IMG/VR virus record: IMGVR_UViG_2522572099_000001
Span: 1-64,000 of that record
Length of the DNA stretch: 64,000 nucleotides
Source: a virus
Taxonomy: Duplodnaviria > Caudoviricetes
Strand: one strand, 5' to 3'
In this document: positions 35,180 through 46,761 of the stretch, one piece after another
How the letters are laid out: every line of letters starts with the position of its first letter
Position numbering within the stretch: the stretch's first letter is position 1
Notes under the pieces: model-generated
Told to the model about the DNA's origin: nothing
The model's input: the letters and a program-made list of their open reading frames with translations, nothing else
Databases searched by the model: none
Program-made: the position numbers and the translations under genes

Positions 35180-36496
35180 GTGTTTCAGGGCGTTGTGCCG
35201 AAAGAGTGCATCGCGCAGATCCTTCGCGTTTCCGAGGTCGACACCTGGGGCAGGGTCTATAACTGCTGCTCGGGAACGTTCCGCTTCGAGCAGATCACGC
35301 TGGCAACGTTCCCCGGTGTCGAGATGCACTCGAACGACGTCAGCCTGTACTCCTCGGCGATCGCCGGCTATGTGCTCGGCAATCCGCTCGACTATGAGTT
35401 TCACGGCGCGCTCGACTTCGTCAACGAGCATGATTTTCGCGAGCCGGACCAGCGCCTGGCGGCACTCGCCGTCGCCTTCAATCTCGGCCGCTTCGTCGGC
35501 GGCAAGGCCAACGCCTACAAGACCAGCCATCGCACCCACCTGGTTGCGAACTTCGCCGGCTATGTCGAGCGCACCCTGGAGAAGGTCCGCAAGCTTCCCG
35601 GGATGATCCCGATCAAGAGCTACGCGCCGCGCGACTGGCTGCTCCACATGGAGGAGGCGATCGAGCGCAAGGCCGCCGTGTTCAGCTACCCTCCGTTTTT
35701 TTTGAACGGCTATGAAAAGATGTTCGCCTTCCTGGCCGAGAACATCAAATGGGACGCGCCGCAGTATCAGATTTTCGATCCGAAGAACCTGCGCGGCATC
35801 ATCGAGCGCGTGCGCCAGGCCGGCGTGCCCTATTGCATCCTCTCCGACCAGGTCTACGAGGATCTCAAACCGGAGCTGGAGTTCATCTCCGGGCGCGGCA
35901 AGCCGCACTTCTGCTACGTCTCGACGGGCAAGTCGTCCTATCTGCAGCTGGTGCCGCGCTCAGCGCCGTTCCGCTACAAGCCTGTCGACCTTGCCAAGAT
36001 CAAGCCGGATTCGGTGGTGACCATCGGCAAGGCCGACGCTGCCCAGATGACGTTTCTCAAGGACGTCTACCTGAAAAAAGGCATCGTCCACACGCCGGGC
36101 ATGGTGAACTACCTGGTCCGCGTCGACGACATGCTGGTCGGCGGGCTGATCTACAACATGGACAAGTTCACCCGGCAATCGATCTACCTGCTTTCGGACT
36201 TCGCCATCTCGCGCGAGGGCAGACTGTCGAAGCTCGTCACCAGGCTCGCCTGCAATGGGGAACTGTTGCGCGACCTTGGGAAGCGCTTCATCGACCGTTT
36301 CGACAAGGTGCAAACCTCAGCGTTTTCGGACCATCCCGTTTCGATGAAATATCGCGGCATCTTCGAGCAAACCAAGCGCGAAGAGATCGGCGCGCCCGAA
36401 GGCAAGTTCAGGCTGCATTACGTCGGCGCCCGCATCGATGAGACGCCGCAACAAGCGTTCGAGTGGTGGTATGGCAAGCACTTCAACCGCAGTTGA
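35180..36496 (+). CDS. Putative DNA-modification enzyme: degenerate Dam-like N-domain plus Mom/GNAT-like C-domain
   Basis: CSGTF..HSNDVS..SYPPF (in place of DPPY); C-terminal VDDMLVGGLIY..LLSDF..RLSKL..TSAFS..SMKYRG. Confidence 0.6.
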   Translation: MFQGVVPKECIAQILRVSEVDTWGRVYNCCSGTFRFEQITLATFPGVEMHSNDVSLYSSAIAGYVLGNPLDYEFHGALDFVNEHDFREPDQRLAALAVAFNLGRFVGGKANAYKTSHRTHLVANFAGYVERTLEKVRKLPGMIPIKSYAPRDWLLHMEEAIERKAAVFSYPPFFLNGYEKMFAFLAENIKWDAPQYQIFDPKNLRGIIERVRQAGVPYCILSDQVYEDLKPELEFISGRGKPHFCYVSTGKSSYLQLVPRSAPFRYKPVDLAKIKPDSVVTIGKADAAQMTFLKDVYLKKGIVHTPGMVNYLVRVDDMLVGGLIYNMDKFTRQSIYLLSDFAISREGRLSKLVTRLACNGELLRDLGKRFIDRFDKVQTSAFSDHPVSMKYRGIFEQTKREEIGAPEGKFRLHYVGARIDETPQQAFEWWYGKHFNRS

Positions 36497-37214
36497 CTGG
36501 AAAGCCCTCGACATCGAGGCGCGCCAGGTCGATCCGAAGACGCTCAAGCGCCGCGAGAAAAACGCGCACTACATGGCGCCTGCGATGTTCAAGCGCCTGG
36601 TCGAGAACGTCAAGATCGACGGGCGCCTGACGACAACCGTTCTCGCCTGCCAGGACAAGGACGGTTCGCTCGAAATTCTGTCCGGTCATCACCGCACCGC
36701 GGCCGCGATCGAGGCAGGCCTTGCCCTGGTCGACGCGCTCGTCATCACCACGCCGCTGACCGAAAAGCGCAAGGTGGCGATCCAGCTCAGCCACAACTCG
36801 ATCAACGGCGAGGACGACCAGTCGCTGCTGGCCCAGCTTTACGCCTCGCTCGATATCGACGCCAAAAAATTCTCCGGTCTCGACGACAGCGTGCTCTCCG
36901 GCGACAAGGGACCTGGGGCCGCAGCACTCGGCGGGGCGAACATCAAATACGACGAGCTGCTATTCGCCTTCCTGCCGGAGGAGCGCGTGCAGTTCGAGGT
37001 CGAAATGGAGGCGCTGGCCAAAAGGGCCAAGCGCTTCCGCATCCATGCAGCGCCGCAATCCACGTTCGACGGCTTTTTCGATGCCATCGTGCGCACCAAG
37101 CAGCAGCTCAACATCGTCAATTCTGGCATAGCGCTTTCGGTGATGGCGCGCCTGGCCGGCGAACGTCTCGATCAGCTCGAGGCCGAGCAAGACGACAAGC
37201 CCGATGCGGCATGA
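36471..37214 (+). CDS. ParB-N/sulfiredoxin-like domain protein
   Basis: KNAHYM..ILSGHHRTAAA..LSHNSING motifs. Confidence 0.85.
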   Translation: MASTSTAVDWKALDIEARQVDPKTLKRREKNAHYMAPAMFKRLVENVKIDGRLTTTVLACQDKDGSLEILSGHHRTAAAIEAGLALVDALVITTPLTEKRKVAIQLSHNSINGEDDQSLLAQLYASLDIDAKKFSGLDDSVLSGDKGPGAAALGGANIKYDELLFAFLPEERVQFEVEMEALAKRAKRFRIHAAPQSTFDGFFDAIVRTKQQLNIVNSGIALSVMARLAGERLDQLEAEQDDKPDAA

Positions 37215-39709: not shown

Positions 39710-41142
39710 TGGCTAACAACGTCGACAACCACCATCCCGACTACGATCTTCGTGTCGAGGAATGGGCGCTGATGCGCGACGCGGCGCGTGGCGAAACGGC
39801 CATCAAGGACGCCGAGACGACTTATCTCCCGATGCCGTCGGGCTTCACCAAGCGGCCCGATGGCGGCGTTGCCCTGTTCGGCGCCTACAAGCTGAGGGCG
39901 CAATTCCCGGAGATCGTCGGGCCTACGATCGGCGGCATGGTCGGCGTCATCCATCGCGTCGAAATCCAGATCGACATGCCGCAGGCCATGGACGGCCTCT
40001 GGGAGAAGGCCACGATCGACGGCATGCCGCTCGAGGCGCTGGCCGCCAAGATCACCGGCGAGGTCCTGACCACCGGGCGCTTCGCCCTGCTTGCCAGCGC
40101 GCCAAGCGCCGGCGGCGAGCCGTATATCTCGACCTATTGCACCGAGGCGCTGATCAACTGGTCGGAAGCCCGCGATTTCTTCGTGCTGGACGAGTCCGGC
40201 CTGGTCCGCGAAGGCTTCGATTGGGTCGAGAGCAAGCGATATCGTGTGCTCGAGCTGGTCGACGGCAAGTATCAGTCCACCGAATATTCCGGCGGTACGC
40301 TTGCGGCCGGCACGCCCGTCAAACCGACAGCCAAGGGCGGCACGCCGCTCGAAGAAATCCCGCTGGTCGTCGTCGGTCCGCGCGACCTGTCGCCTTCACC
40401 TGAGACGCCGCCGCTGATCGGCGTGGCGCGCTCGGCGGTCAACATGTACCAGCTCTCGGCCGACTATCGCTGGCAGCTGTTCATGACCGGCCAGGAAACG
40501 CTGTTCATCATCAACGGCGATGAACCCGAAATCGTCGGCGCCGGCGTCATCGTCTCGCTCAAGGCCGATGGCGAGCAGACCCCGGATGCGAAATATGTCG
40601 GTCCGTCCGGCACCGGCATCGACGCGCACAAGGTGGCGATCACCGATGAGCGCGACGCCGCGGCAGCTGCCGGCGCCAAACTGTTCGATACAGCCTCGCA
40701 GGCGCAGGAATCGGGCGACGCCAGGCGGCTTCGCTTCGCCGCCCAGACCGCAACGCTGGTCACCATCGCCCAGGCTTCGGCAAAGGCGCTGGAACAGGTG
40801 CTGCGCCACATCGCTGTCATGAAGGGGCTCGACCCGACGCAGGTCATCGTCAAGCCGAACCTGTCGTTCATCGATAGCACGCTAACGCCGGCCGAAGTCG
40901 TCCAGGTCATCCAGGGCTGGCATGATGGCGGCTACAGCTACGAGACCATGTACGAGCGGCTGCAGAAGGGCGAGGCGGTCAATGCCGACCGCACCGCCGA
41001 GGAAGAACGCAAGCTCATCGACAAGGAAACGGCGGCGTCCGACGCTACCGATGCGGAGCGCGGCATCCTGCCGGGTCCGCCTAAACCCACTGTTCCGGCT
41101 GTTCCGGCCCTTCCTGTTCCAGTGCAGGCGCCGGCGGCGTGA
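39709..41142 (+). CDS. Portal protein (DUF4055-type)
   Basis: HPDY..YLPMP..Y..RA..PPLIGVA..YQLSAD; follows terL. Confidence 0.9.
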   Translation: MANNVDNHHPDYDLRVEEWALMRDAARGETAIKDAETTYLPMPSGFTKRPDGGVALFGAYKLRAQFPEIVGPTIGGMVGVIHRVEIQIDMPQAMDGLWEKATIDGMPLEALAAKITGEVLTTGRFALLASAPSAGGEPYISTYCTEALINWSEARDFFVLDESGLVREGFDWVESKRYRVLELVDGKYQSTEYSGGTLAAGTPVKPTAKGGTPLEEIPLVVVGPRDLSPSPETPPLIGVARSAVNMYQLSADYRWQLFMTGQETLFIINGDEPEIVGAGVIVSLKADGEQTPDAKYVGPSGTGIDAHKVAITDERDAAAAAGAKLFDTASQAQESGDARRLRFAAQTATLVTIAQASAKALEQVLRHIAVMKGLDPTQVIVKPNLSFIDSTLTPAEVVQVIQGWHDGGYSYETMYERLQKGEAVNADRTAEEERKLIDKETAASDATDAERGILPGPPKPTVPAVPALPVPVQAPAA

Positions 41143-41345
41143 GAGCCTCGCTTCGTATCGATCGCGAGGTGCTGGAGCGCAACATGTGGCCCGACAAGAG
41201 CTGCCGCGTCCGCATCGTCGGCGCGTCCTGGGATCCGGCCACCTCCAGCGTCGTGCTGGATCTCGAAGGCAAGAGCCTGCCCGACGGTGGCGAGGTCAAG
41301 CTGTTGACGCGCCGCTGGACAGAGACGGAGTTCAAGCCCCTGTGA
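41139..41345 (+). CDS. Small hypothetical protein
   Basis: GTGA coupling at both ends. Confidence 0.6.
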   Translation: MRASLRIDREVLERNMWPDKSCRVRIVGASWDPATSSVVLDLEGKSLPDGGEVKLLTRRWTETEFKPL

Positions 41346-42394
41346 CGCTGTTTCGTGAGTGTTTCCGGCATCTCGGATCGATCGAGCGCCGACGCATCCC
41401 GCCGATTCCGCGCGAGGCGATGCGGCTGCACCGCCTGGAACGGCCCGAGCCGTGGCCAAGCGAGGTCGTCGAGGCCATGCGCGCCGGCCCGCCGGACAAC
41501 TGGTATCCGGACTATGCCGCGTTCTATCGGCGGCTGAGCGCGTTCACCGGCGTTCCCGAGGAACGCATGGTCGTCGGCGCCGGGATTGAGGATTTCATTC
41601 GCACGCTCGTCATGTTGTGCTGCGAGCCGGCCGACGGCTTCGCCTTCACCTGGCCCACATGCGCCATGTTCGACATTTATGCCCAGGTGTTCCTGGCAAG
41701 ACCGGTTCGCATCGTCACGGACCCGAAACGACTTCTCTCGGTGCATGACGTCACCGACAAGATCGACAGCGGCGTCAAACTGCTGATCCTGCCCAACCCA
41801 GGCCAGCCGGTCGAGACCTATTTCTGCCTGGCGGAACTGCGCCACATCGCACAGCGCTGCGCCAGCGTCGGCGCGGTGTTCGCCATCGATGAGGCTTATC
41901 TCGGCTTCGGCGCCGAAACCGCACTGCCGCTGGTCGACGACTTCGAAAACGTCGTCATCCTGCGCACCTTCTCGAAGGCTTTTGGCGGTGCAGCACTTCG
42001 CGTCGGCTATGCCATCGGGCAGCCTTCGGTCATCCGCCCTCTCCACGCCATCCGCGAATCCGGTGAGATCGCCGGGCCTTCGATCAACGGCGCCGTGGCG
42101 CTGATGGATAAGTGGTCGAGGTGGGTCGAGCCCGGCATCGCCATGGTCTGCGAAGGCCGCGACTGGCTGCGCGACACGCTTCTGCGCGACGGCTACGACG
42201 CGCGTGGCTGGTTCGCCAATCACGTCATGGTCCGTCTGGACGAGCCGGCAGCGCCGTTCGCGGAGCGCATGCGCAAGCGCGGCGCCCATGTGAAGGCCGG
42301 GTTCCCGGCACCGCTTGACGGAAGCCTGCTGATCACGGGCGGCTCGGTCACGCTGATGCAGCGGTTTTATCGAGCATTCCAGGAGGCGTTGTGA
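41342..42394 (+). CDS. PLP-dependent HisC/CobD-like aminotransferase or decarboxylase
   Basis: YPD, NP, IDEAY and LRTFSKAFGGAALRVGY motifs. Confidence 0.9.
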   Translation: MTLFRECFRHLGSIERRRIPPIPREAMRLHRLERPEPWPSEVVEAMRAGPPDNWYPDYAAFYRRLSAFTGVPEERMVVGAGIEDFIRTLVMLCCEPADGFAFTWPTCAMFDIYAQVFLARPVRIVTDPKRLLSVHDVTDKIDSGVKLLILPNPGQPVETYFCLAELRHIAQRCASVGAVFAIDEAYLGFGAETALPLVDDFENVVILRTFSKAFGGAALRVGYAIGQPSVIRPLHAIRESGEIAGPSINGAVALMDKWSRWVEPGIAMVCEGRDWLRDTLLRDGYDARGWFANHVMVRLDEPAAPFAERMRKRGAHVKAGFPAPLDGSLLITGGSVTLMQRFYRAFQEAL

Positions 42395-43053
42395 GCGGCA
42401 TGGACGGCGTCTTCCACGAGACTGACGGCAAGCTCGAACTCGTCGGCGACTGGCAAAAGGTCTATGCCGAGAACAGCGATCCCTGGGACCAATCCGGCAC
42501 CAAGGGCCAGATGGCGGCCTATTACGCCACCAGCCGCGTTCGCCTGGTCGAGACGCTGGGCAAGCTTGGTCCGTTCAATTTCGGGATCGAGATCGGTTGC
42601 GGCCATGGCCACCTCACCGCCATGCTCAATAACTCCGTGGCGATGATGCTAGGCATGGACATCAGCCAGGAAGCGATCGGCACGGCACGCTTGCTCCACC
42701 GGACAATCCCGTTCGCTCAGGGCGATATAACCGCGGATGGCGGCATTCGGCATTTCGGTCCGAATTACATCGATTTCGTCATCCTGGCGCAGTGCCTCTG
42801 GTACGTCCTGCACCGCTTCGACGTGATGCTCGCCAACTGTCTCGATACAATCCGCCCCGGCGGGCTGTTCGTCGTCTCTCAGGCCTTCCTGGAGGGCGAG
42901 CAGCGCTACGGCGCCGAGATCGCCGACGGCTTCACCGGCGCGCTTCGCCTGTTCATGGCGAGCGATCGCCTGCAGCTCATCCACGCCAACTACGACGACA
43001 GCGGGCGCCTCGTGCACCGCGACGGCCTCATGATTTTCAGGAAGGTTGCATGA
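42391..43053 (+). CDS. Class I SAM-dependent methyltransferase
   Basis: DPW, IEIGCGHG, GMDIS, LWYV and IRPGG motifs. Confidence 0.9.
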   Translation: MSGMDGVFHETDGKLELVGDWQKVYAENSDPWDQSGTKGQMAAYYATSRVRLVETLGKLGPFNFGIEIGCGHGHLTAMLNNSVAMMLGMDISQEAIGTARLLHRTIPFAQGDITADGGIRHFGPNYIDFVILAQCLWYVLHRFDVMLANCLDTIRPGGLFVVSQAFLEGEQRYGAEIADGFTGALRLFMASDRLQLIHANYDDSGRLVHRDGLMIFRKVA

Positions 43054-43898
43054 ACGCCAACGACGCGACGCTCCGCAACCTGGCGCGCAAGGCGACCTTC
43101 GTCGACCATGTGCAGATGATCGGCAAGGTGCCGCTGTTCTCGTTCATCGAACTCAACCCGACCGAACTCTGCAACCGGGCCTGCGTGTTCTGCCCCCGCG
43201 TCGACGAGGCGAGCTATCCGAACCAGCGCCTGCACATGGCGATGCCGCTGGCGGAGAAGATCGCATCCGACCTCCAGGAACTCGACTATCAGGGCACGGT
43301 CCACATTTGCGGCTTTGGCGAACCGCTGCTGCATCCGCGCATCGTCGACCTGGTGCGCGCTTTCTCGAACTTCCGCGTCGAGATCACCACCAACGGCGAT
43401 CGGCTCAATCCTGAGCTGATCCGCGAGCTGACCGCCGCCGGCTGCGATTACATCTGCGTCTCGATGTATGACGGTCCCCATCAGATCCCGCATTTCGAGG
43501 CGATGTTCGCCGAGGCGGGATCGACCGAGTTCATCTTGCGCGATCGCTGGCAGCCGGAGGAAGAGAATTTCGGCCTGTCGCACCTGACCAATCGGGCGGG
43601 AACGATCAATGTCGGGGTGCAGCGGCCGGTCGACGCCGCGCGGCCATGCTGGTATCCGTCGTACCAGCTGATGCTCGACTGGAACGGCGACGTGCTGCTG
43701 TGCCCGCAGGACTGGACGAAACGCGCGCGCTTCGGCTCTGCGGCGACCGAACACCTGCTCGACATCTGGACCTCGCCGGCCATGCGCAAGCGCCGCATGC
43801 AGTTGCTGCGCGGTCGTGAAGGCCTGTCGCCATGCGGCGGCTGCAACAGCGACGGCTGCAAGCACGGATCGGAACACGCTGCTGCCTGGCAAGGCTGA
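43050..43898 (+). CDS. Radical SAM / SPASM-twitch protein
   Basis: CNRACVFC, GEPLL, TTNG, NRAG and C..C..CGGC motifs. Confidence 0.93.
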   Translation: MNANDATLRNLARKATFVDHVQMIGKVPLFSFIELNPTELCNRACVFCPRVDEASYPNQRLHMAMPLAEKIASDLQELDYQGTVHICGFGEPLLHPRIVDLVRAFSNFRVEITTNGDRLNPELIRELTAAGCDYICVSMYDGPHQIPHFEAMFAEAGSTEFILRDRWQPEEENFGLSHLTNRAGTINVGVQRPVDAARPCWYPSYQLMLDWNGDVLLCPQDWTKRARFGSAATEHLLDIWTSPAMRKRRMQLLRGREGLSPCGGCNSDGCKHGSEHAAAWQG

Positions 43899-43900
43899 CA

Positions 43901-45175
43901 GTGTCGACCATCGCCATCATCGGCCATGGCCGCTCGCCCGAGGGCAAGGGCTGGGGACCGCTGATCGACGGTTGCGACATGGTGGTTCGCATGTGGGACT
44001 GCGCCTGGCAGGCCCAAGGCGACTACGGCAGCAGATACGATTATGGCCTGATCGAAGCGCATCCGGCCATGATGGTGCCCTTCCAGAAGAACAACCGGCG
44101 CCGGCCGGCCCGCGGCTGGATCGCATCGAAGCTGCATCGTCCGGAGCGCTGCGGCTTGCCGCCAAAATGCGAACTGGTCGACCAGGAGCCATGGAACGAG
44201 ATCGGCAAGAAGCTCGGCGGCATCGGCGCCACCGGCCGGCTCCAGTTCACGCGCGGCACGATCGCCACCTGTTGGGCGATCGAGAAAGCGCCGCGCGGCA
44301 GCACCATCGTCTTGGTCGGGTTCGACAACATCGTCGCCGGCAGGACGCTGGAGCTCAACCAGGCCTTTGCGCCGATCTACCAGCGCAATCCCGGCACATT
44401 CTCGTTCGGTGCTTACACAGGGGGCGTCAGCAAGGCCGGCAACCACGACTTCGCCGTCGAGTTGCCGGTCATGCAGCACCTTGCCGCCAGGTATCACGTC
44501 CGGCTGGTCACGGCCGGCGAGATCTGGCCGTCGACGCCGGACGCACTGCCGATCCCTTCCGACTGGAGGCCTGAGCCTGTGAAGACCGCGCTCATTCTTG
44601 GCGATGCCGCATCGGTCCGCGACGATGCCGCGGCCGCGCTCAAACTGTTCACGCCGACGGCGATCGCTGCCGCCAACAACATCGGCATCGAATGGGAAGG
44701 CAAGCTCGACTACTGGTTCACGCTGCATCCCGGCGCCTGCATCGACTGGATCGGCATCCGTGACGCGCTGTCGCGTCGTCTCAAGGCAGGGCGAAACAAG
44801 CCTGAAATATGGGCGCACAAGGCCGCCAACGGCATCGATCGCCACACGCCCGATTGGGGCGGCTCGACCGGCCTGCTCGCCGCCAAGGGCCTGCTCGAAC
44901 TCGGCTATGAGCGCATCGTGCTCGCCGGTGTGCCGATGGACAGTTCGCCGCACTTCTACAGCGGCCAGCCCTGGCGTCAGGTGGAGCGCTACCGGCGCGC
45001 CTGGCAGGAACATCTGCCGGACCTCGCGCCGTTCGTGCGGTCGATGGGCGGCTGGACGAAGGATCTGCTCGGCAAGCCCGATCCGGAATGGCTAGGCGTG
45101 TTGATTTCGGCTCCCTCAAAGGAGGTCGAGAAAATTAGCATGGGTCAGGATGAGGCTGTCCACAGCCTCGCTTGA
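43901..45175 (+). CDS. Two-domain sialyltransferase-fold glycosyltransferase (GT29-like plus Maf/GT42-like)
   Basis: IIGHG..G..IDGCDMVVRM, TRG..IVLVGFD, HDFAVE; second domain ILGDA..GSTGL..LGYERIVLAGV..HFY. Confidence 0.65.
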   Translation: MSTIAIIGHGRSPEGKGWGPLIDGCDMVVRMWDCAWQAQGDYGSRYDYGLIEAHPAMMVPFQKNNRRRPARGWIASKLHRPERCGLPPKCELVDQEPWNEIGKKLGGIGATGRLQFTRGTIATCWAIEKAPRGSTIVLVGFDNIVAGRTLELNQAFAPIYQRNPGTFSFGAYTGGVSKAGNHDFAVELPVMQHLAARYHVRLVTAGEIWPSTPDALPIPSDWRPEPVKTALILGDAASVRDDAAAALKLFTPTAIAAANNIGIEWEGKLDYWFTLHPGACIDWIGIRDALSRRLKAGRNKPEIWAHKAANGIDRHTPDWGGSTGLLAAKGLLELGYERIVLAGVPMDSSPHFYSGQPWRQVERYRRAWQEHLPDLAPFVRSMGGWTKDLLGKPDPEWLGVLISAPSKEVEKISMGQDEAVHSLA

Positions 45176-45204
45176 CTTCGCCAGCGTTGTAACCAATATG
45201 GCAC
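45172..45204 (+). promoter_or_regulatory. Putative promoter (TTGACT..CAATAT) with operator variant 45189-45204
   Basis: GTAACCAATATGGCAC directly upstream of the structured RNA region. Confidence 0.6.
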
Positions 45205-45211
45205 CAACAAG

Positions 45212-45535
45212 AGTGTCCCGCCGCTTCGTTCATGGGCATCTGCACCATTGACTGCTGGCGATAGGCGGGCGCCAGGATGCCAAGGCCGGAGCAGGCGGCC
45301 GTTTCATCCTGGCAAGGAACCCTGAGAGCGCCGGTACACTCCCCGGCCGTGACCATGCCTGTTTCCGGTGTACCCGGGCATGGAGGCGATAACAGAAAAC
45401 CGGCGGGCACGGCTCTCCAACAGGAGGCTCCAAGCCCGACAGTTTCAGATGTCCTCCCAAGGACAAAGACGGCAGCCATCGTGAGCGGCTTGACTGCTCG
45501 AACGGCGGGCCGGGCCATTGCGACAGGCCTGGGCC
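45212..45535 (+). ncRNA. Structured non-coding RNA region
   Basis: Several long stems (CCCGCC/GGCGGG, GCCAGGATG/CATCCTGGC, CGCCGGT/ACCGGCG, CCATGCC/GGCATGG); no credible ORF. Confidence 0.45.
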
Positions 45536-45543
45536 AAAAGTTT

Positions 45544-45612
45544 GCGGATGCTCCGTGAGAGATGCCTGTTCCACAGGCGTTGAGCCAGGCTTGACACCTG
45601 GCATCCGCTCCA
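45544..45612 (+). tRNA. Non-canonical tRNA-Gly(TCC), 69 nt, with encoded CCA
   Basis: Acceptor GCGGATG/CATCCGC-T-CCA; anticodon arm TGCCT-GTTCCAC-AGGCG; T-arm CCAGG-CTTGACA-CCTGG; shrunken D-arm. Confidence 0.75.
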
Positions 45613-45624
45613 GAGAGGCACCAG

Positions 45625-45715
45625 GTCCGCGTGGCGGAAATGGAAGACGCGACGGGTTTAGAACGCCCGTTTGTAGCTTCGGCAAGCAGTGCAGGTTCGA
45701 TTCCTGTCGCGGGCC
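45625..45715 (+). tRNA. Atypical class II tRNA (Leu-TAG-like, 9-nt anticodon loop, no CCA)
   Basis: GTCCGCG/CGCGGGC acceptor; TGGCGGAAATGGAAGACGC D-arm; long variable arm; GCAGGTTCGATTCCTGT T-arm. Confidence 0.7.
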
Positions 45716-45810
45716 TGGTGACCTTAAACGTTCGGGCCGCGTCGCAGGTGATAGATGGTGGGGGCACCGCCGATCATCTCTGGCGCGGCCCAGCCCTTCC
45801 AGGAGACACC

Positions 45811-46173
45811 ATGGCGCGCTTGACCGATCTGAAACGCGAGGAACTCTGCCGGCAATATGTCGCCGGCGTTCCGACGGCGCAGATCGCCAAGGAGTTTGGC
45901 GTCTCGGAGAGCTATCCGAGCCAGATGGCGGCGAAGTTCAAGCTCAAGCGCCGCGTTGAGCACGAGCCGCGCGATCCGGAGGCCACCGTCGCCAAGCGCC
46001 GTGCGCTGGCCGACATGCTGGTCGACGACGTCCCCACGGCTGGCCGTCCCGCGCCGATGAACGCCAACTCGGCCATTGAAATCCGGCGTCTGGCCGCGAT
46101 GGGCAAGGGCCGCACTGCAATCGCGGCCTTGCTGCGCTGCCCGTATCGCGTGGTCGACGCCGCGCTCGCCTAA
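45811..46173 (+). CDS. Small HTH protein
   Basis: RBS AGGAGA; two HTH-like segments. Confidence 0.7.
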   Translation: MARLTDLKREELCRQYVAGVPTAQIAKEFGVSESYPSQMAAKFKLKRRVEHEPRDPEATVAKRRALADMLVDDVPTAGRPAPMNANSAIEIRRLAAMGKGRTAIAALLRCPYRVVDAALA

Positions 46174-46601
46174 GCCTTGGCTGCTTTCCTCTTCTTCGGC
46201 TTGCGCGGCTTGCGCACGAAATCGACCGTGTAGCGCTCATAGTGCTTCACATGGGTAAAGGGCGGAAGCGTCCTTATCTCCGTGTCAAGGACGATGCTTT
46301 CGAGACCGTTCTTGAAGATCTCGACGACGTTGAGCTTGGTCAGCTTCTGGATGCTGACGACCTCGACATCGACGGCCGGGATCTCGCTGCCCGGGTTGGC
46401 GAAATGAAACGCCGCCTGCAACCGCCGGATCGCCTGAACCGTGGCTCGGTCGGACGTGATGACCTGCGTCTCGCCCAGCCAGACGAAGCGATAGAGCCGC
46501 GCCAGCAACAGGTGTTCGGGCACTTTTCGCTTCAAAGGTCCAACGGCGATGATGGGCTTGGGTAGCCGGTCCAGTCGCGGCTTCTTGGTGCTGTCTGTCA
46601 T
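46170..46601 (-). CDS. Hypothetical protein antisense to the late operon
   Basis: Convergent ORF filling the gap. Confidence 0.55.
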   Translation of the reverse strand: MTDSTKKPRLDRLPKPIIAVGPLKRKVPEHLLLARLYRFVWLGETQVITSDRATVQAIRRLQAAFHFANPGSEIPAVDVEVVSIQKLTKLNVVEIFKNGLESIVLDTEIRTLPPFTHVKHYERYTVDFVRKPRKPKKRKAAKA

Positions 46602-46694
46602 TGGCCAAGGCTCTCGGTTGAAAATGGGCGTCATCCCATATTTCAGCCGGCTTTGCCAATCTGACGTGATTTCCACTCGTTTGTGATGTGCCAG

Positions 46695-46721
46695 CCCGCC
46701 AATCCCGGCGGGTTTTTTGTT
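46695..46721 (+). terminator. Intrinsic terminator-like hairpin upstream of scaffold
   Basis: CCCGCC-N6-GGCGGG-TTTTTTGTT. Confidence 0.7.
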
Positions 46722-46761
46722 GCTCGCGGAGCGGGCTTTTCAACCCAGAAGGAGACCGGCG

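Follow-up and report, generated by a model that had tools for sequence, protein, structure and literature searches.

The virus record IMGVR_UViG_2522572099_000001 in IMG/VR encodes a small RNA that resembles tRNA-Gly and has a shrunken D arm. This element is 69 nt long and lies at 45544..45612 on the + strand of the window analysed here (the first 64 kb of the 72,282-bp record, which has direct terminal repeats and 62.7% G+C); we characterised it through its sequence, a genome scan, a family model and covariation. We consider it probable, judging from sequence comparisons, that the element is a private, non-decoding glycine carrier, a tRNA-Gly mimic with a miniaturised D arm, for the 438-aa Dam-like+GNAT enzyme encoded at 35180..36496 (+). 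The RNA belongs to a structured family with a clear pattern of conserved and drifting bases, and this family is genetically linked to Mom and Dam-like+GNAT genes.

A shrunken cloverleaf with the identity bases of tRNA-Gly

The element opens with a 7-bp acceptor stem (45544-45550 paired with 45602-45608, +), all of it Watson-Crick, followed by a mini D hairpin, CUC-CGU-GAG, with a 3-bp stem and a 3-nt loop (45551-45559, +) and by a linker at 45560-45562. The anticodon arm (45563-45579, +) has a 5-bp stem that includes one U.G pair, and its 7-nt loop, GUUCCAC, holds U33, the anticodon UCC at 45570-45572 and A37. A 5-nt variable region (45580-45584, +) leads into the T arm (45585-45601, +), with a 5-bp stem including A51-U63 and the T loop CUUGACA; U73 is at 45609 and CCA is encoded at 45610-45612 (+). 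All 17 base pairs are intact in the window's copy. The 12 nt between the acceptor and anticodon stems hold neither U8 nor G18G19, and the T loop differs from the canonical U54-U55-C56 at positions 54 and 56, so that there is no C56. The anticodon loop can itself be closed by G32-C38 and U33-A37, and the minimum-free-energy fold closes both pairs. The identity set of E. coli glycyl-tRNA synthetase (GlyRS) consists of G1:C72, C2:G71, G3:C70, U73, C35 and C36, every one of which is present in the element.

An earlier note on this DNA had described the 69-nt cloverleaf with its encoded CCA, the missing U8 and G18G19, the 12-nt D replacement, the CUUGACA loop and the zipping of the anticodon loop, and the sequence and its fold are exactly so. 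It had also suggested that standard scanners may miss the element, as they do: ARAGORN does not call it in bacterial mode, nor with -ps90 or -ps80, its sole standard call at this locus being a neighbouring tRNA (45624-45716), and Infernal searches with Rfam RF00005, for which the family cut-off is 29 bits, leave it unmatched at the gathering score and at E<=10 in both a 601-nt and an 81-nt slice. With -mt, ARAGORN labels the element 'D-loop mtRNA-Gly(tcc)', a call that on its own is weak evidence because the same mode makes 11 calls across the 72-kb genome. We also used a custom scanner for D-arm-less cloverleaves, with CCA optional and with strict, loose and very loose settings. When both strands of the 72,282-bp genome were scanned the element was the sole site, and 629 simulated genome equivalents of independent and identically distributed base composition yielded 0 sites at the strict, 1 at the loose and 5 at the very loose setting, ruling out a chance origin of the cloverleaf.

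A conserved RNA family

The nearest relatives of the window are Mesorhizobium prophages. Covariance model R1, made from the single window sequence and its cloverleaf, matched four IMG/VR proviruses (G501-G504) over its full length, at 44-97 bits, and also three Mesorhizobium genomes (G389, G390 and G469). Eight distinct rhizobial sequences carry compensatory changes in 4/5 anticodon-stem pairs and 2/5 T-stem pairs. Model R2 was made from 8 sequences, and the element scores 95.6 bits against it, the window's own sequence being among those 8 sources. Together R1, R2, a pattern scan of IMG/VR for the conserved RNA ends and a scan of distant loci gave a family of 22 distinct sequences.

In an alignment of these 22 sequences fitted to the model, a procedure that favours pairing, 96.5% of cells are paired, compared with 37-47% when the partners are slid by 1-3 columns. 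Double-sided changes occur in 12 of the 17 pairs (96 cells), and the covariation score of the family was reached by none of 500 shuffles. In most members position 7 is directly followed by a hairpin with 3 bp in its stem and 3-6 nt in its loop, and because its stem covaries (CUC/GAG, CCU/AGG, CUG/CAG, GCC/GGC, CCC/GGG), the D arm is miniaturised rather than simply deleted. The cloverleaf shape, mini hairpin, NCC anticodon and U73-CCA are common to GC-rich and AT-rich phages; the window's element has the three covarying helices, GCGG/CCGC, U73-CCA and an NCC anticodon, together with a Dam-like+GNAT gene in its genome. We conclude that the family is a real, structured and conserved RNA.

What is kept and what drifts differ sharply. 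All 22 sequences retain G1:C72, C2:G71, G3:C70 and G4:C69 (the GCGG/CCGC acceptor top), G53:C61 and U73; CCA is kept in 21 of them, and the listed anticodons, UCC, CCC, GCC or ACC, are always those of glycine (NCC). Homologues hold on to the identity elements named in the earlier note. U, C and G all occur at position 33 and all four bases at position 34, positions 32 and 38 are complementary and leave a 5-nt loop, and anticodon loops of 5, 6 or 9 nt occur; this drift at decoding positions agrees with the note's description of an RNA that seems not to be built for the ribosome. One of its details has to be given up: the A51-U63 pair cannot be read as a conserved feature acting against EF-Tu, because the pair is not conserved across the family (AU 7, GC 7, CG 5, GU 1). 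The overall pattern, in which parts read by GlyRS are kept and parts on which the ribosome is strict are loose, fits a non-decoding glycine carrier, and it forms the core of our functional argument.

Genome G363 holds an 81-nt tRNA-like sequence (L097:1501-1581, -) that ARAGORN does not call and that scores 33.5 bits with R2; its acceptor stem is GCGGGCA/UGUUCGC, its T arm is canonical, UCCA is present and the middle is long and irregular, and it may be a further divergent or decayed member of the RNA family. A search of cultured-phage DNA with 44500-47000 and with 45535-45725 gave no match to the element, an exact 35-nt pattern had 0 matches in IMG/VR, and a pattern scan of 301 genomes of the family returned 4 matches as against ~30 in controls, which is chance level.

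Linkage to Mom and Dam-like+GNAT genes

Nine of nine IMG/VR records with a ~90% identical copy of the 35180 gene also carry the RNA, at a spacing of 12-15 kb where measured; in one of the nine, gene and RNA are on different contigs of one source genome. The gene is present in 2 of 202 Mesorhizobium species genomes, G389 and G390, and these are the two best RNA matches among the 151 Mesorhizobium genomes searched. The G500 provirus (the same as L002, a prophage of Mesorhizobium loti) shares the window's tRNA islet; there the gene is absent, as it is from the whole host genome G001, and the gap contains a normal tRNA-Met and a 24-nt remnant with both acceptor strands and UCCA, the anticodon and T arms being gone.

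The link extends to distant relatives of the enzyme. We kept the best 80 of 415 relatives, which gave 71 Dam-like+GNAT loci of 33-71% identity (960 kb); the strict custom scanner found only 2 true members in such loci, and the covariance model was used instead. With R2 the 71 loci yielded 17 matches at E<=1, every one of them on the strand of the gene and 16 upstream of it. In L154 and in L204-L207, the latter being four occurrences of a single sequence, 32-33 nt separate the end of the RNA from the Dam-like+GNAT gene. In 66 control loci lacking such genes (309 kb), R2 gave one weak match of 21 bits, and in four whole control records it gave none. One of the 17 R2 matches, L147:5510-5582, is instead a canonical tRNA-Gly(CCC) whose D arm is complete; it follows the gene at a distance of ~750 nt.

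The IMG/VR pattern scan for the conserved RNA ends returned 33 stretches, 13 of which are cloverleaf members by inspection: 8 in rhizobial provirus records, 1 in L110 and 4 in AT-rich phages. Seven of the 8 rhizobial records hold the Dam-like+GNAT gene too, and for the eighth that gene is found on a different contig from the source genome of the record; in L110 the RNA lies 493 nt upstream of a 36%-identical Dam-like+GNAT homologue. The four AT-rich phage copies directly adjoin a genuine Mom gene (PF25680, E 7.5e-45; Mu Mom, PDB 8bv8, E 4e-10): the RNA starts 2 nt after the Mom domain finishes, at residue 211 of 237, within the gene order methylase, ParB, Mom, RNA, small and large terminase. 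The two Mom proteins of the AT-rich phages are ~30% identical (32.5% by tblastn; 29% over the alignment), and the phage RNAs are the same except for the anticodon loop and a single anticodon-stem base. The earlier note had proposed examining co-occurrence with 35180-type genes, and the RNA family is genetically linked both to these and to Mom.

Two further observations concern the arrangement of these loci. In L122:1270-1983 and L116:2631-3395 (-) the Mom reading frame continues through the RNA and stops 4 nt past CCA, its last ~25 codons being the tRNA-like gene; since the frame has no stop before the RNA, excising the RNA would leave the mom mRNA without a stop codon. A ParB-N-like gene comes after the Dam-like+GNAT gene in the window (36438-37214, +) and 5' of Mom in the AT-rich phage (L122:846-1325), and in both it stands just ahead of the terminase genes, a recurrent order of modification gene, ParB and packaging.

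The Dam-like+GNAT enzyme

The 438-aa protein matches PF22555 (E 1.7e-50) and PF22559 (E 4.4e-45), a combination seen in ~500 Dam-like+GNAT fusions. Its AlphaFold2 (AF2) model (mean predicted local distance difference test, pLDDT, 89.6) has two domains. Residues 3-250 have the fold of a Dam-type DNA adenine methyltransferase (E. coli and T4 Dam, Z ~13, VIA-align), and residues 275-420 have a GNAT fold, to which Mu Mom (8bv8_B) aligns with Z 10.8 and a root-mean-square deviation of 3.2 A over 139 aligned residues (VIA-align). At the position of the Dam DPPY motif the protein has YPPF and the family consensus FPPF, and this replacement suggests that the Dam-like domain is an adenine-binding module that no longer methylates. 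The pairing of a putative adenine-flipping domain with an acyl-transfer domain fits, on the modelled structure, an enzyme that would acylate the N6 of adenine.

The GNAT fold of Mom is marked by a helix-turn-helix-like insertion and by the residues R111, S124, D149 and R151. Going by the sequence comparisons listed below, the 35180 GNAT domain is not a demonstrable member of the Mom family; Mom is also absent from the Foldseek top list for the model. The best evidence for a Mom-like action of the enzyme is the RNA that its genes and true Mom genes have in common.

A proposed route for glycine

In phage Mu, Mom transfers glycine from Gly-tRNAGly to the N6 of adenine in double-stranded DNA, and the adduct then rearranges to carbamoylmethyl-adenine, as the main text of Silva et al. 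(Nat Commun 2026, PMC13219725) describes. That text reports that all three E. coli tRNA-Gly isoacceptors are active and Gly-tRNAAla inactive, states the authors' suspicion that Mom recognises the acceptor end, and mentions a possible cost of tapping the translation machinery (PMC13219725). The main text of a 2023 preprint (10.1101/2023.03.24.534169) agrees on the chemistry. Neither main text mentions a phage-encoded tRNA or tRNA-like partner of Mom (PMC13219725; 10.1101/2023.03.24.534169), and our literature search, confined to main texts, found no description of one.

We propose that the phage described here supplies such a partner. The RNA would be transcribed in a late or intergenic transcript, possibly from the promoter-like site CTTGAC-N17-CAATAT at 45171-45199, and would be cut out like a tRNA, its CCA end being already encoded. 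Host GlyRS would charge it with glycine by means of the kept identity bases, and the glycyl group would pass from the RNA to the Dam-like+GNAT enzyme of 35180-36496, which would acylate (glycylate) adenine N6 in the DNA of the phage, in the manner of Mu Mom and the Gly-tRNAGly of its host; DNA modified in this way would be protected from restriction. Because it has no D-loop/T-loop elbow and no normal anticodon loop, we infer that the RNA would stay outside translation and so give the enzyme a private pool of activated glycine. The earlier note had proposed a dedicated glycyl donor, for either the protein at 35180 or the adjacent modification cluster. The first half of that proposal gains from the tie between the RNA and the Mom-like enzyme class, which according to the main text cited above uses Gly-tRNAGly (PMC13219725); the second half does not stand, as no link to the adjacent cluster was found (see below).

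A broader claim seems to us evenly balanced between true and false: that many adenine-acylating phages carry their own ~65-72-nt tRNA-Gly mimic, in which the needs of GlyRS and GNAT are kept and those of EF-Tu and the ribosome shed, and that, independently of Mom, the Dam-like+GNAT fusions make up a second family of DNA aminoacyl transferases that depend on tRNA.

Several observations weigh against a glycine carrier dedicated to this enzyme. Some concern the enzyme: 8bv8_B ranks second of the GNAT matches, yet many acetyltransferases lie within 1 Z of it; Pfam assigns the protein to PF22559, and Mom (PF25680) does not reach E<=0.01; Mom does not turn up when the protein is compared with the PDB by phmmer; BLASTP with the L122 Mom reaches only E 1.6; and hhalign of the GNAT domain against Mom gives a probability of 1.4%. 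Others concern the linkage. G469 carries a copy of the RNA whose acceptor stem is interrupted by 2 inserted nt, yet no Dam-like+GNAT gene was found there; 54 of the 71 Dam-like+GNAT loci have no RNA match within the locus DNA searched; and 4 of 5 further whole records lack the RNA, one of them a 100% complete genome. The RNA is thus not obligatory, and Mu itself relies on host tRNA. Shared descent from one event may account for the rhizobial co-occurrences, and in the window 9 kb separate the RNA from the gene, which is on the same strand; the RNA sits in a separate insertion beside an aberrant tRNA, with no shared operon. Finally, three copies in gene-keeping proviruses look damaged: that of G502 has a G.G mismatch and GCA in place of CCA, that of G503/G389 a 1-nt deletion in the T stem, and that of G501 a 6-nt anticodon loop and a T-stem mismatch. 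The pairing-friendly fit of the alignment belongs on the same side of the scale.

Other explanations of the RNA

tRNA-like operators control some synthetase genes, and the RNA could be a regulatory tRNA mimic that binds the GNAT enzyme or GlyRS, either from the leader or the tail of the enzyme's mRNA or in trans, and tunes expression without donating glycine. Its position 32-33 nt before the Dam-like+GNAT start codon on the same strand in L154 and L204-L207, and inside the 3' end of the Mom reading frame in the AT-rich phages, would suit such a role. In the window and 10 rhizobial relatives, however, the RNA is 9-15 kb from the gene, which excludes action in cis there, and the invariant U73-CCA end and NCC anticodons suit a synthetase substrate more than a protein-binding decoy; we regard regulation as unlikely.

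The retained acceptor end and anticodon loop are also the parts recognised by enzymes that attack tRNAs, and phage tRNAs that evade tRNA-targeting defences are known. The RNA might accordingly be a decoy or sponge that shields the host Gly-tRNAGly pool or the phage from such a defence, for example a GNAT toxin acetylating Gly-tRNAGly or an anticodon nuclease. What recurs next to the RNA, however, is Mom or Dam-like+GNAT genes and no defence or toxin gene, and we know of no nuclease against tRNA-Gly(NCC); a decoy is therefore, in our estimate, quite unlikely.

The failure of the element with standard ARAGORN and RF00005 would be expected of a decaying, functionless tRNA-Gly pseudogene in a degenerating phage tRNA islet. 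The neighbouring tRNA is aberrant as well (37.9 bits, with a 9-nt anticodon loop), L002 retains only the 24-nt remnant, several relatives are defective and others are without the islet. Against decay, 17/17 pairs are intact in the window, the features of the family persist through many compensatory changes, and the AT-rich phage RNAs are nearly identical while the Mom proteins that adjoin them are only ~30% identical, and we give a pseudogene very little credence.

An ordinary decoding tRNA-Gly for GGA/GGG codons in phage translation is the least probable account and scarcely credible: UCC, U33, A37 and the encoded CCA of the window copy would allow it, as would the canonical tRNA-Gly(CCC) near the gene in L147, but the lack of a D arm, G18G19 and C56, the pairable 32/38 and the relatives with C33 or G33 and with 5-, 6- and 9-nt loops are features that do not fit the known requirements of bacterial EF-Tu and the ribosome.

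Some simpler origins were rejected outright. Blastn of the whole gap that contains the element against G001 gave short matches at E>=0.014 and no tRNA-Gly, which disposes of a recent copy of a host tRNA-Gly and of an attP core; the element moreover has both acceptor strands and sits inside proviruses. A repeated protein-binding site was dismissed because the 5' 12-mer is not enriched in the window (16 matches with <=2 mismatches vs 21.9 expected).

The surroundings of the element

The element lies in a 635-nt intergenic gap between a gene for a 447-aa two-domain protein that belongs to no Pfam family (43832-45175, +; 5' of the gap) and a small helix-turn-helix gene (45811-46173; 3' of the gap). 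Of the public sequencing runs, one contains nearly all of the window and resembles an 8-Mb isolate assembly, probably that of the source; another has just two short fragments of the helix-turn-helix gene, and none of the runs listed for this DNA is an RNA run. Further 5' of the 447-aa gene are genes for the large terminase, the portal, a pyridoxal phosphate (PLP) enzyme, an S-adenosylmethionine (SAM) methyltransferase and a radical SAM/SPASM enzyme. The PLP aminotransferase-like, SAM methyltransferase, radical SAM/SPASM and 447-aa genes form a module at 40922-45175 (+), between the portal and scaffold genes. The same gene order occurs in many phage contigs, in some of which the halves of the 447-aa protein are separate or repeated genes; the closest relatives of this protein are P0001 (91% identity) and P0002 (79%). 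The module may be a virion or glycan modification system.

This module is the adjacent cluster that the earlier note had offered as a possible user of the RNA, and we reject the partnership. In 66 loci of relatives of the 447-aa protein (288 kb) the custom scanner found no such cloverleaf, R2 on these loci gave nothing above 21 bits, and a standard tRNA is present only in L002 and L019, which are the same prophage; in L041, L044, L045, L048 and L049, scaffold and capsid gene homologues directly follow the 447-aa gene on its 3' side, with no tRNA or cloverleaf. A first metagenome scan with the 447-aa pair gave 0 matches. Because the module recurs elsewhere without tRNA or cloverleaf, the tRNA islet is a separate insertion, shared only with L002.

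The promoter-like site (45171-45199, +) is at the start of the gap and was read from the sequence. It is the only segment of the gap significantly conserved with the relative L002 (blastn E 1e-6), and it resembles what we take to be the rhizobial promoter consensus; a generic sigma-70 scan found nothing at 45171-45199. The site is a possible start of the transcript carrying the RNA. Within the same gap (45217-45537, +), the 370 nt preceding the element fold somewhat more stably than shuffled sequence (z -2.3). A motif, AACCGGCGGGC...CCAACAGGAGGC...CCCGACAGTTTC, at 45395-45445 is repeated right before the element in G469 (L096), and a shorter CAGTTT occurs 5' of most rhizobial copies of the RNA; these may be a processing or leader signal.

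The neighbouring tRNA is an aberrant class II tRNA 11 nt 3' of the element (45619-45720, +; Rfam 37.9 bits), most like phage tRNA-Leu genes. Its anticodon loop is read as 9 nt with UAG by Infernal and as 7 nt with AGA by ARAGORN ('Ser(aga)'); CCA is not encoded, and the acceptor helix grows to 13 bp through leader-trailer pairing of CACCAG with CUGGUG. In relatives it was not seen next to the element.

Significance

The use of a charged tRNA by Mom for DNA modification was established in 2023-2026, with host tRNA only according to the main texts cited above. The enzyme chemistry is known; the literature we searched does not describe a viral tRNA-Gly look-alike with a minimised D arm that is tied to it. 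If our reading is true, viruses would be able to split an aminoacyl-tRNA pool from translation, and on the broader claim above there would be a viral class of non-ribosomal tRNAs devoted to DNA hypermodification. The family would define a minimal RNA accepted by GlyRS and these GNAT enzymes, and would serve as a genomic marker of DNA aminoacylation systems that tRNA finders miss. It would also give a testable function to the large, uncharacterised Dam-like+GNAT family, which is found in phages and prophages of many bacteria.

Comparison with known systems

The element resembles a canonical tRNA-Gly in its acceptor stem, its anticodon arm, its T arm with G53-C61, its U73-CCA end and its NCC anticodon, and differs from it in having no D arm, U8, G18G19 or C56 and no RF00005 match at E<=10. 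With the mt-tRNA-Ser(AGY) of metazoan mitochondria it shares a three-helix architecture and a short stretch that replaces the D arm. D-arm-less mt-tRNAs, however, decode on specialised ribosomes with specialised factors, whereas the element comes from a bacterial phage, is GC-rich, has helices free of mismatches and has relatives in which U33 is lost.

The system proposed here is like that of Mu Mom in that a phage GNAT enzyme would put glycine from tRNA-Gly on adenine N6 of double-stranded DNA and thereby evade restriction, and true Mom genes do abut members of the RNA family in the AT-rich phages. The differences are that Mu encodes no tRNA and can work with any isoacceptor of its host, whereas here a shrunken tRNA-Gly look-alike is borne by the phage, and that the enzyme of the window is a Dam-like+GNAT fusion with no detectable sequence similarity to Mom.

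The non-proteinogenic tRNA-Gly isoacceptors of Staphylococcus are glycine donors for pentaglycine synthesis by FemXAB. As we propose for the element, they are dedicated carriers that receive glycine from GlyRS, stay out of translation and serve GNAT-fold transferases. The staphylococcal RNAs are cellular, serve the cell wall and have a full cloverleaf with altered bases in the D loop and T stem, the T-stem pairs being such as to weaken EF-Tu binding, whereas the element has a 3-bp mini hairpin for a D arm, is viral and would serve DNA modification. By analogy, the element may work like the staphylococcal RNAs, but it is not one of them, because its D arm is a mini hairpin and the 51-63 pair is unconserved in its family.

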